Source: a bacterium (GTDB taxonomy: Bacteria; Desulfobacterota; Binatia; HRBIN30; CADEER01). Taken from it: 64,000 nucleotides of DNA. The notes under the pieces are model-generated. The model was not told where the DNA came from. It saw only the letters and a list, made by a program, of their open reading frames with translations, and did not search any database. The DNA lies in NCBI GenBank assembly GCA_019637795.1, contig JAHBUY010000006.1, forward strand, positions 114,330 through 178,329. The letters are read 5' to 3'. Numbering within the stretch: the stretch's first letter is position 1; each line of letters begins with the position of its first letter. A program made the translations under genes and the position numbers. Below are positions 23,641 to 63,908 of this stretch, piece by piece.

Positions 23641-24384
23641 GTGATGTCGCCCGCCCGTCCCGCGCTGCTCGCGCTCGTATCCCTGTGGCTGCTCGCCGCG
23701 CCGGCCGCGGCGCGAATCGGCGGCATCGTCGGCTTCTCGGACATCGGCTGCACCGACTGCCACGACGCCCAGGGCGCGCCGACCCCGGGCATCGCCATCA
23801 TCGGTCCCACGGCCGTCGAACCGGGGGCGCACGTGCCCTACCAGCTCGTGGTGACCAGCATGGGCCCGTCGCAGCTCGGCGCCGGCTTCAACTTCGCCGC
23901 CTCGGCCGGCGACGTGGCGGTCGGCGACGACCCGGGCGTGCGGCGGGCCGAGAATCGCGAGCAGGGTCGCTTCGAGCTCACCCATACCGGCCCACGCGAG
24001 AACGACGGCAACGGCCAGGCGACGTGGTCGTTCATCTGGATTGCTCCCGATACACCCGGCGACTACGCCCTGTTCGCCGCCGGCAACAGCGTCAACCTGA
24101 ACAACGAGTCGACCGGCGACGCCTCCAACATCACCGTCCTCATGGTGCGGGTCGGCGCCGACCAGCCGACGCCGACGCCGACCGTCACCCCCCTCCCCGC
24201 CGCCTGCGCCGGCGACTGCAACGGCGACGGGACCGTCGCCATCAACGAGCTGATCAGCGGCGTCAACATCGCCCTCGGCTCGGCCGCGGTCGGCACCTGC
24301 GCGGCGGTCGACGCCAACGGCGACGGCAGCGTCGCCATCAACGAGCTCATCGCCGCCGTCAGCAAGGCCCTGAGCGGCTGCTGA
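23641..24384 (+). CDS. secreted protein with an N-terminal CxxCH motif and a C-terminal Cys-bracketed dockerin-like double repeat
   Basis: Signal peptide; GCTDCHD; C-terminal CAGDCNGDGTVAINELISGVNIALG...CAAVDANGDGSVAINELIAAVSKALSGC, about 60% identical to the N-terminal module of the 3632..6577 protein. Confidence 0.7.
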   Translation: MMSPARPALLALVSLWLLAAPAAARIGGIVGFSDIGCTDCHDAQGAPTPGIAIIGPTAVEPGAHVPYQLVVTSMGPSQLGAGFNFAASAGDVAVGDDPGVRRAENREQGRFELTHTGPRENDGNGQATWSFIWIAPDTPGDYALFAAGNSVNLNNESTGDASNITVLMVRVGADQPTPTPTVTPLPAACAGDCNGDGTVAINELISGVNIALGSAAVGTCAAVDANGDGSVAINELIAAVSKALSGC

Positions 24385-25272: not shown

Positions 25273-25322
25273 TGGCCGACGCGCGGGAGGGCCGGCGCGC
25301 CGGCCCTCCCGCGCAGCCGCGC

Positions 25323-25835
25323 ATGGCCCGTCCCACCGCCGACGACGCCCCGCACGGCGGCCTGACGCCGCCGCGGGCGTTCGCGCTCCGCTTCTTCCTC
25401 TTCCTGGCGGCGGCGAGCGTGCTCTCGTGGGCGGTGACCCTGCCGGAGCGGCTCGGGCCGGCGCAGCGCGGGCTGGCGACCGCCGCCGCCTGGCTGGCCG
25501 GGCTCACCGGCGGCCGCGCGTCCGTCAACGCCGACGAGATCTCGGTCGGCGCGCTGCTGGTGCACATCAACTTCGAGTGCACCGGCGTGTACGTGCTGCT
25601 GATCCTCTTCGTCTTCCTGCTCGCCTATCCGGCCAGATGGCGCCAACGCCTGCTCGGCGCCGCCATCGGCCTGGTCGCGCTGCAGATCCTCAACGTCCTG
25701 CGCATCGCCTTCCTGGTGCGCGTCGCCGAGCTGCGGCCGGGGCTCTTCGACTCCATGCACGAGTACGTCTGGCAGGGCCTCTTCCTGGTGCTCACCGTCG
25801 CCTATGCGATGACCTGGGTCGAGCATTCGCAATGA
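25323..25835 (+). CDS. short exosortase/archaeosortase-family-like membrane protein (catalytic core only)
   Basis: FECTG (compare the exosortase ECSG Cys motif), NVLRIAF Arg 41 residues after the Cys, and a later HEYVWQG His. 170 aa, so it lacks the usual N-terminal TM bundle. C-terminal segment of track ORF 23544..25835. Confidence 0.5.
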   Translation: MARPTADDAPHGGLTPPRAFALRFFLFLAAASVLSWAVTLPERLGPAQRGLATAAAWLAGLTGGRASVNADEISVGALLVHINFECTGVYVLLILFVFLLAYPARWRQRLLGAAIGLVALQILNVLRIAFLVRVAELRPGLFDSMHEYVWQGLFLVLTVAYAMTWVEHSQ

Positions 25836-26365
25836 TCGGCCGCGCCGGCTTCGTCGCCCGCTTCCTGCTGGTCTTCGCCGTGCTGGTCGCGCTCGGCTGG
25901 CTCACGGCGGCGCCGCGCGCCTACGCGACGGCGCTGCGCGTCGCCGCCGCGCTCGCCTGTCCGCTGCTCAACGGCTGGACGCTCGAGGACCGCACCGTCA
26001 GCGGCGGCCGGCAGGAGATCCATTTCCGCCGCGGCAACGACCAACTCCGACTCGCGCTCGGCCTCGACCAACTGGCGCTCGGCCTGCTGCCGCTGTTGGC
26101 GCTGCTCGGCGCCACGCCCGGTCTCGGCGTCCGCCGCGTCGCCACCAGCGCCGCCATCGGCGGCGCGGCGCTGTTCGCCCTCGACCTGCTGATCCTCGTC
26201 TCCTACCCGTGGCTGGTCGGCGCCCCCAGCGCCCTCACCGACATCCTCGGCACCTTCCTCGGCCTGCTCACCTTCGTCGGCGGGCCCGTCATCCTCTGGT
26301 TCGTCCTCACCTACGGCCACCTGCGCGACGTCTGGAAGCTCGACCGGCGTCGCGTTGCCCGGTGA
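25832..26365 (+). CDS. hypothetical membrane protein translationally coupled to the exosortase-like gene
   Basis: ATG at 25832 overlaps the upstream TGA (ATGA); about 4 hydrophobic helices. Trimmed from track ORF 25427..26365. Confidence 0.5.
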   Translation: MIGRAGFVARFLLVFAVLVALGWLTAAPRAYATALRVAAALACPLLNGWTLEDRTVSGGRQEIHFRRGNDQLRLALGLDQLALGLLPLLALLGATPGLGVRRVATSAAIGGAALFALDLLILVSYPWLVGAPSALTDILGTFLGLLTFVGGPVILWFVLTYGHLRDVWKLDRRRVAR

Positions 26366-26388: not shown

Positions 26389-26766
26389 ATGGATCCCACC
26401 GAGCGCTCCGCGCTGCTCGACGCCGTCGACCGCTACAACCGCGGCGACTACCTCGTCGCCCAGGAGGCGCTCGAGTCGCTCTTCAACCGCCTGCCCGGCG
26501 ACGATCAACCGCTGGTGCGCGCGCTGATGACGATGGCGACCGCCATGCACCTGCACTTCCGCCGCGGCGGCGGCCGCGGCGTCCTCAACCTGCTGCGCCA
26601 GGCGATGGTGACCCTCGACGAGATCGGCCCCGAGCGCGAGGGCGTCGCCACCGGCGAGCTCTTCGAAGCCGCGCAGGCCTACCTGCAGGAGCTCGAGGGC
26701 CGGCGGAAGCCGGGCGCCGGCTTCTTCGACCGCTGGCTGGCACCGAAGATCCGCTATCGCTACTAG
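26389..26766 (+). CDS. DUF309-family protein
   Basis: RYNRGDYLVAQEALESLF...MHLHFRRGGGRGVLNLLRQA matches the DUF309 pattern. Confidence 0.6.
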   Translation: MDPTERSALLDAVDRYNRGDYLVAQEALESLFNRLPGDDQPLVRALMTMATAMHLHFRRGGGRGVLNLLRQAMVTLDEIGPEREGVATGELFEAAQAYLQELEGRRKPGAGFFDRWLAPKIRYRY

Positions 26767-62999: not shown

Positions 63000-63908
63000 T
63001 CACACCCGCCGGCGCGCGGCCAGCGCCAGGCCGATCAGGCCCGGGGCGAGGAACAGCGCCACGATCGCCGGCGCGGCCACGAGCCAGTACCACAACCGGC
63101 CGTCGAGCCCGCAGGCCGCGGCGGCGGGGCCGCACGGGGCCGCGTTCAGCCATGGCGCGCCAACGGCGTTCCACAGCAGGTGCTGGCCGATCGCCAGCAG
63201 GAGTCCGAGCAGCGGCGCGACGATCGCCGGCGCGTCCGGCCCGCGCGGCGCCCACCCGAAGCCGGCGCCGGCGGTGGCGGTGAACGTCGGATGCAGCAGG
63301 CCGCCGAGCGCGGCGCGCAGGTAGACGCTCTCGGCGAGGCCGCCGGCGCCGCCGGCGAGCGCGGCGAGCGCGAAGTAGTAGAGGTTCTCGGCCATGGTGA
63401 AGCCGATGCCGATCAGGGCGCCGACGACGATGCCGTCGCGCACGTCGCGCAGCGCGCCGCGCCACCCCAGCGCCAGCGCCGCCAGCGCCGCCGCCTTGGC
63501 GATCTCCTCGATGGCCGGCGCGGCCAGCGCGCCGGCGAGCCAGGTCGCCGTCGCCGCGCCGGCCAGTTCGCCGAGCCCGGCGCGCGCCGCCCGGTTGAGC
63601 AGCAGCGCCACCGCCGGCGCCGCGACCGCGCCCCACAGGAAGGCGCCGAGCAGCAGGCGCCGCCGGCGCTGCCACCGGCGGTCGAGGCGCAGCACGACGG
63701 CCGCCGCGATCGCCGCCGGCGCCAGGGAGAGCGCCAGCAGCGGCCAGGGCACGTCGCGCATCAGCCGGGCGAACCCGAGCAGGAGCAGCGCGGCGATCAG
63801 CGCGCTGGCGATCGAGCGGAGACGCGCGGCGGACACGCCGGGTGTCTGCCCGGGCGACGGCGCCGGTTCAAGACGCGCGGCCGGCGCGACGCCGACGGAC
63901 GCGGACAC
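63000..63908 (-). CDS. PrsW-family intramembrane metalloprotease
   Basis: EEIAK, FTMAENLYY (FxxxEN) and HLLWN (HxxxN) motifs within a polytopic membrane protein. Confidence 0.7.
   Translation of the reverse strand: MSASVGVAPAARLEPAPSPGQTPGVSAARLRSIASALIAALLLLGFARLMRDVPWPLLALSLAPAAIAAAVVLRLDRRWQRRRRLLLGAFLWGAVAAPAVALLLNRAARAGLGELAGAATATWLAGALAAPAIEEIAKAAALAALALGWRGALRDVRDGIVVGALIGIGFTMAENLYYFALAALAGGAGGLAESVYLRAALGGLLHPTFTATAGAGFGWAPRGPDAPAIVAPLLGLLLAIGQHLLWNAVGAPWLNAAPCGPAAAACGLDGRLWYWLVAAPAIVALFLAPGLIGLALAARRRV

Follow-up and report, generated by a model that had tools for sequence, protein, structure and literature searches.

Two overlapping genes in the window, by which we mean the whole 64-kb stretch of DNA analysed here, are likely to form a divergent member of the XrtH-type protein-sorting module: the first (ORF1) encodes a small exosortase-like enzyme and the second (ORF2) a small membrane protein, its partner. 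Exosortases are enzymes of the membrane by which exported proteins are trimmed and anchored. The closest known system consists of the exosortase XrtH (TIGR04177), its associated membrane protein NF041730 and cargo proteins of the IPTL-CTERM type (TIGR04174 / PF18203). Coordinates of the pair, of its surroundings and of the features cited from related loci are collected in Table 1.

Table 1. Features of the window and of related loci
Feature	Position	Strand	Remarks
Mini exosortase, XrtH-like (ORF1)	25323..25835	+	ATG start, TGA stop at 25833-25835, 170 aa
Partner membrane protein (ORF2)	25832..26365	+	ATG start, TGA stop, 177 aa, without catalytic triad
G+C-rich perfect 32-nt palindrome (16+16), CGCGGGAGGGCCGGCG/CGCCGGCCCTCCCGCG	25282..25313	.	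between SDR_B stop (25272) and exosortase start
DUF309 gene	26389-26766	+	27.5 bits, gathering score 27
Neighbours of the pair			two adh_short SDRs, secreted CTDCH protein with EF-hand/dockerin-like C-terminus, DUF309, then PFOR
CTDCH paralogue, window	23641-24384	+	similar in L005, L006, L019
CTDCH paralogues, L001	5635-6366, 6373-7221, 3449-4528 (-)
Multi-pass membrane protein, window	63000-63908	-	C-terminal tail resembles a sorting signal
Three-gene cassette, L023	1172-3355
SDR genes, L019	3015-3768, 8616-9379		CAVQHW010000002.1
Exosortase C-terminus, then gene for P0283, L021	1-775		HLJ_forest_Scaff3247833

A short exosortase-family enzyme

The preliminary description of this DNA had read an exosortase catalytic core into ORF1 from an FECTG motif, an arginine 41 residues after its cysteine and a downstream histidine, and searches against exosortase models agreed with it, since the protein scores 54.2 bits on NCBIfam TIGR04178, above the family signature cutoff of 23, and 26.6 bits on Pfam PF09721, above the gathering score of 25.7. 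As the PF09721 match covers profile positions 103-246 of 254 only, ORF1 is without the N-terminal helices of long exosortases, a shortening that had been noticed at the outset. The motif reads F84-E85-C86-T87-G88, R127 stands exactly at C86+41, and H146 lies within MHEYVWQG. Residues E85, C86, T87, G88, N124, R127 and H146 are invariant among 24 close homologues, so that the proposed Cys/Arg/His triad holds among orthologues; in a broader set of 64 partner-adjacent, XrtH-like relatives of ORF1, drawn from three collections, C86, N124, R127, H146, W150 and Q151 are each found in 64 of 64 sequences. Judged by these profile matches and residue patterns, ORF1 is a real exosortase-family enzyme of the short type, with Cys86, Arg127 and His146 as candidate catalytic residues.

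The AF2 model of ORF1 (pLDDT 86.9) shows two N-terminal helices (residues 16-39 and 46-61), three short strands (67-69, 72-75 and 78-81), a short Cys-bearing helix (84-87) and three long helices (89-101, 106-137 and 139-169). From this model and the positive-inside rule we infer four membrane spans and a small three-stranded sheet, with both termini inside and with Cys86, Arg127 and His146 near the outer face, at the outer ends of the last three membrane helices.

ArtA of Haloferax volcanii belongs to the same superfamily, and the 41-residue spacing between C86 and R127 equals the quoted spacing of its C173 and R214. It differs in being a long enzyme, with an NCBIfam model of 271 positions of which ORF1 matches only 138-197 (15.9 bits), and in its sorting signal, PGF-CTERM; we know of no private partner protein for ArtA. 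As listed in PMC7157517, the study of Abdul Halim et al. (2018, Mol Microbiol 108:276) found the conserved residues of ArtA to be essential for activity.

A co-conserved two-gene module

The TGA of ORF1 and the ATG of ORF2 overlap in the tetranucleotide ATGA (25832-25835), the arrangement originally described, and we propose that the partner gene is translationally coupled to the exosortase gene. A protein identical to ORF1 is present in NCBI (P0121, 'archaeosortase/exosortase family protein', on a 406-kb contig). The G+C content of the window is 73%, and relatives of the pair come mostly from MAGs labelled Candidatus Binatia or 'Deltaproteobacteria bacterium', which gives no support to the initial guess of a Myxococcota-like genome.

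Among 18 Binatia loci from species-representative genomes, all 16 that have upstream DNA carry the exosortase gene directly 5' of the partner gene, and the pair is kept adjacent in every checkable locus down to a partner identity of about 40%; the other neighbours of these pairs vary and include SDRs, YchF, secreted CxxCH/dockerin-like paralogues and DUF309 on either strand. Moreover, an overlapping mini-exosortase gene also precedes distant relatives of the partner (loci L020 and L022-L025), whose neighbourhoods differ again: L025 has sigma/anti-sigma genes along with a GyrA-like gene, and L024 has a gene that is AsmA-like. Since adjacency persists amid unrelated neighbourhoods, the pair is a two-gene module and not a case of local synteny, and the idea of a dedicated, co-conserved partner is upheld in the Binatia as well as in the distant loci.

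A metagenome scan seeded with the L023 enzyme yielded 39 XrtH-like loci. A partner homologue lies directly downstream of the enzyme in 30 of them (broad partner HMM, E 1e-39 to 6e-10), and 28 of those downstream proteins are also found by the Binatia-only partner HMM at E<=0.01 (best 5e-11). The remaining nine loci have no downstream partner match; in most of them the contig is short and breaks off not far beyond the enzyme gene.

Relation to XrtH and its associated protein

Subfamily models rank XrtH (TIGR04177) first for ORF1, at 72.8 bits and thus below its curated cutoff of 86, followed by ArtB, XrtX, XrtY and XrtM, with XrtF in eighth place. XrtH is the top model also for five Binatia relatives (55-76 bits), and three partner-adjacent relatives lie at or above the 86-bit cutoff (L023, 88.0; L051, 87.1; L066, 117.1). 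The likeness to the XrtH system extends to its architecture, with a short four-helix exosortase of about 160-190 residues bearing the Cys/Arg/His triad and, directly 3' of its gene and usually overlapping it, the gene for a membrane protein of about 175-215 residues.

The analogue put forward earlier was XrtF of Bacteroidetes, which the TIGRFAMs/NCBIfam descriptions give as a short exosortase encoded beside a private XrtF-associated protein. The window resembles it in that a short exosortase gene adjoins the gene for a private small membrane protein; however, ORF1 scores only 27.6 bits on XrtF (TIGR04128), whose cutoff is 90, and no NCBIfam or Pfam model matches the partner, so that XrtF had to be given up in favour of XrtH.

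The partner had been called a membrane protein of unknown family, and this stands insofar as the window protein matches no Pfam or NCBIfam model even at E<=10, while 23 Binatia homologues give only non-significant matches (E>=0.3) to the XrtO, TFIIB and PspC models. Clustered at 90%, the family counts 184 homologues, whose source MAGs bear mainly the labels Binatia or Deltaproteobacteria; they are 'hypothetical protein' in every naming source save for one mislabelled 'di/tricarboxylate transporter'. It is small, as a profile search of 1.84 billion cluster representatives returned just 50 clusters at E<=1e-3 (about 50 at 50% clustering). Its best-conserved residues are P87, L91, A94, P152 and W156, together with a polar residue at position 118 (Asp in Binatia, His or Gln elsewhere), and no conserved Cys was found in the partner superfamily.

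NF041730 (cutoff 35 bits) gives no match at E<=10 to the window partner or to 24 Binatia homologues, and three distant relatives match it weakly (10.6-20.9 bits, best E 2.4e-4), all below the cutoff. The two ends are joined through intermediate sequences. Locus L066 combines an unambiguous XrtH (117.1 bits) with a true NF041730 member (40 bits) encoded downstream of it; an HMM of 29 intermediate partners, from which Binatia sequences were excluded, matches both this L066 member (E 3e-12) and the window partner (E 2.8e-11), and hhalign of the Binatia-only partner alignment against the intermediates gives a probability of 98% (E 1.6e-13, 165 columns). This profile chain identifies NF041730, the 'exosortase H-associated membrane protein', as a remote homologue of the window partner, and the two window genes are a divergent branch of the catalogued XrtH / XrtH-associated pair. 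Because both proteins fall outside the curated cutoffs, they are not filed as strict members of TIGR04177 and NF041730; the window pair differs further in having no adjacent cargo gene and in belonging to a clade confined to high-G+C MAGs, mostly Binatia. Nor is such a pair unusual, as had been supposed, given that a short exosortase with a partner is already catalogued and curated as the XrtH type.

One small contig (L021, 775 bp) carries an exosortase C-terminus followed by the gene for P0283, a protein that resembles the partner over its first 118 residues (54-57% identity with P0274 and P0280) and closes with nearly the same exosortase C-terminus; this gene is probably an assembly chimera or a product of duplication and recombination.

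Origin of the partner

The AF2 model of the partner (pLDDT 87.5) consists of helices 4-25, 27-47, 78-82, 85-94, 100-130 and 134-168 and strands 50-56, 60-67 and 70-73; its elements, among them three short strands and a short helix ahead of helix 3, follow one another in the order seen in the enzyme model and have similar lengths. Once the partner alignment had been broadened, hhalign against the enzyme family gave a probability of 84% (E 7e-6, score 41.0), compared with scores of 17.8 +/- 2.5 (maximum 26) for 100 block-shuffled controls and of 13-14 for reversed ones; when the enzyme family was broadened as well, the probability was 75% (E 2.5e-5, 143 collinear columns, score 38.4), the shuffled controls reaching 19.4 +/- 3.8 (maximum 32). 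The profile match places the partner's ATPGLGVRR on the enzyme's AYPARWRQR and D118 on N124, and the positions of C86, R127 and H146 are taken in the partner by A82, I121 and I138. Weak matches of the partner family to the XrtY, XrtX, pacearchaeosortase and XrtO models were accompanied by comparably weak ones to unrelated models (TFIIB, PspC, P-type ATPase, ABZJ_00895).

On the strength of the profile match and of the order of elements in the models, the partner is a probable, though not an established, catalytically dead paralogue of the enzyme. The paralogy is graded as probable only because the intermediate partner clade alone gives 6.6% against the Binatia enzyme and because block shuffling breaks the order of helices and loops, which makes the controls a test of composition and leaves them blind to shared topology; a four-helix topology common to both proteins could thus inflate the signal. 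The same two points, together with a non-significant direct BLASTP between the two proteins (E 0.086) and an hhalign value of 3.7% when Binatia sequences alone are compared, can be read as signs that the partner is a dedicated accessory protein unrelated in origin to the enzyme and resembling it by convergence, the XrtH-type reading being otherwise kept. We consider this unlikely, since the broader alignments are full-length, collinear and well above the shuffled and reversed controls, the order of secondary-structure elements is identical, and the polar residue of the partner falls at the column of the invariant N124 of the enzyme. In a literature search for XrtH terms we did not find the paralogy of the associated protein with its enzyme stated, nor an experimental study of the XrtH-type arrangement of enzyme and partner, and this paralogy is possibly the one potentially new point of the present analysis.

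Cargo and sorting signals

None of the ORFs in the 64-kb window ends in an IPTL-like motif followed by a hydrophobic helix and a basic cluster, or in another tripartite tail, in agreement with the earlier remark that no cargo gene lies nearby. One multi-pass membrane protein towards the end of the window has a tail (...WYWLVAAPAIVALFLAPGLIGLALAARRRV) that mimics a sorting signal, but this tail is part of its last membrane helix; the protein also contains an EEIAK stretch.

A cargo gene does stand directly upstream of the enzyme in 37-38 of the 39 metagenome loci, its product ending in ...SGTIDAPTLSEWG followed by a TM helix and RRR, and tails of this type are true IPTL-CTERM (37.2 bits on IPTL_CTERM, cutoff 20.5). 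Similarly, L023 has a CARDB/DUF11 protein ending in ...DAPTLSEWGMIAAWGSFALAFWWAARRRR, then the exosortase that passes the XrtH cutoff (88.0 bits), then the partner relative P0290. Such cassettes of cargo, enzyme and partner are a dedicated XrtH system with a single cargo.

Three-gene cassettes made up of a CARDB/DUF11 IPTL-CTERM surface protein, an XrtH-like enzyme and a partner are seen in L023 and in L028-L065. The signal ...SGTIDAPTLSEWG... is almost invariant over the 37-38 metagenome loci, many of which come from the sample series Ga01804xx and Ga02724xx.

Within the Binatia, weakly IPTL-like candidate tails occur 2-6 kb from the pair in three of the 18 loci. In L009 the candidate is an HYR-domain protein with the tail ...APVLDFGALIALAVVLAGFGFWSARRRAG, at 19.8 bits against the 20.5 cutoff and scored as a fragment; in L016 and L019 it is a small Cys-rich protein with the tail ...VPAMSAAGVSAFLVALLGIGFWSFRRRIS, at 12.3 bits. 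All are degenerate (VPAMSAAG..., APVLDFG...) and below the cutoff, unlike the tails of the XrtH system, and as cargo signals they are suggestive only. Cargo of this Binatia clade is probably encoded away from the pair, at other places in the genome, and its IPTL-like tail is probably degenerate.

Neighbouring genes and transcription unit

The neighbours named in the preliminary description (two SDRs, a secreted CxxCH/dockerin-like protein and DUF309) were confirmed, and PFOR was found beyond DUF309. The intergenic RNA between SDR_B and the exosortase gene, which includes the palindrome, is predicted to fold with -45.6 kcal/mol and a 15-bp stem. Five of the eight related loci examined (L002, L005, L006, L010, L012) have a strong hairpin of unrelated sequence in the corresponding gap; in six of nine relatives examined, SDR_B is set off from the pair by a strong hairpin. 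A consensus scan detected no sigma-70-like promoter and no plus-strand terminator with a T-run; the palindrome has no T-run and for this reason was not reported by the scan. The transcription unit of the pair probably has its 5' boundary at this palindrome, and SDR_B is unlikely to share a transcript with the pair because of the strong hairpin between them. At the other end, DUF309 starts 23 nt after the partner gene and may be co-transcribed with the pair in the window lineage.

DUF309 adjoins the pair in most Binatia loci even where it is inverted (on the opposite strand downstream in L007, L011, L013 and L014), and it is absent from pairs outside the Binatia clade. Many Binatia loci also have, near the pair, two or three paralogous secreted proteins with an N-terminal CxxCH (CTDCH) and a C-terminal, Cys-flanked EF-hand/dockerin-like double repeat, which match no Pfam family above threshold.

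Two taxonomic labels among the relatives call for caution. L019 is labelled Actinomycetota, a label that is doubtful because its gene order is that of the Binatia loci; the alignment of each of its two SDR genes is broken into two abutting pieces that lie in different frames, a pattern suggestive of indel errors or pseudogenes. The same doubt applies to the Propionibacteriaceae label of P0001, a partial sequence whose 151 residues all agree with the window partner.

Of the 18 Binatia loci, 9 have SDR_B upstream of the pair; it is missing from L007, L008, L011, L013, L014 and L015 among the Binatia and also from the more distant L023-L025 and L028-L066, the SDR neighbours being specific to the Binatia lineage. 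This distribution bears on the earlier suggestion of a lipid or glycan target in place of a protein C-terminus, on which reading the pair would be an XrtF-like orphan working together with the flanking SDRs. A window free of cargo genes, the upstream SDR_B in half of the Binatia loci and an exosortase acceptor that is not known all leave room for it, but we find it very hard to sustain: the score on the XrtF model is far below the cutoff and the partner matches no model, SDR_B is missing from so many loci and set apart from the pair by the hairpin, and the presence of an IPTL-CTERM protein as dedicated cargo directly upstream in the relatives argues against a lipid or glycan target. Less credible still is a role for the partner as a substrate instead of a subunit of the enzyme, in the manner of the 'midcut-by-XrtH' proteins: NCBIfam does hold a family with an internal XrtH-type signal (NF033207, cutoff 45 bits) and the invariant P44..G48-W49 stretch of the partner (CPLLNGW) is loosely like IPTLxxWG, but neither the partner nor its relatives match NF033207 or IPTL_CTERM, and PLLNGW is followed by strands and charged residues where a membrane helix and a basic cluster would be expected.

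Discussion

Taking the two genes as an XrtH-type sorting module, and by analogy with ArtA and the exosortases, the enzyme would recognise exported proteins with a three-part C-terminal signal (IPTLxxWG-like motif, membrane helix, Arg cluster), would cut at the motif through a Cys acyl-enzyme intermediate, and would pass the mature protein to an acceptor. The partner would be a non-catalytic four-helix subunit, most likely a duplicate of the enzyme that lost Cys, Arg and His, and would probably pair with the enzyme in the membrane, where it may serve as a scaffold or as a gate for the substrate helix and replace the extra N-terminal helices of long exosortases. A wider and more tentative proposal, on which we remain divided with a slight leaning towards doubt, is that short XrtH-type exosortases are obligate heterodimers with a tandem-duplicated 'pseudo-exosortase' that gives the helices of long exosortases in trans, and that in the Binatia clade, moreover, the sorting motif has drifted into a new, degenerate form and the cargo is dispersed.

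The module is not a new kind of system, and beyond its value for naming and as a minimal system the finding is an ordinary one. The partner family of the Binatia can be named exosortase H-associated-like membrane protein. We found no exosortase structure in the PDB, and with no solved structure and no known acceptor of the reaction, so small a module is of relevance to the family as a whole: a 170-aa enzyme with a 177-aa inactive look-alike would offer a convenient minimal system for the structure and biochemistry of exosortases, for which the cassettes of cargo, enzyme and partner supply a ready-made substrate.
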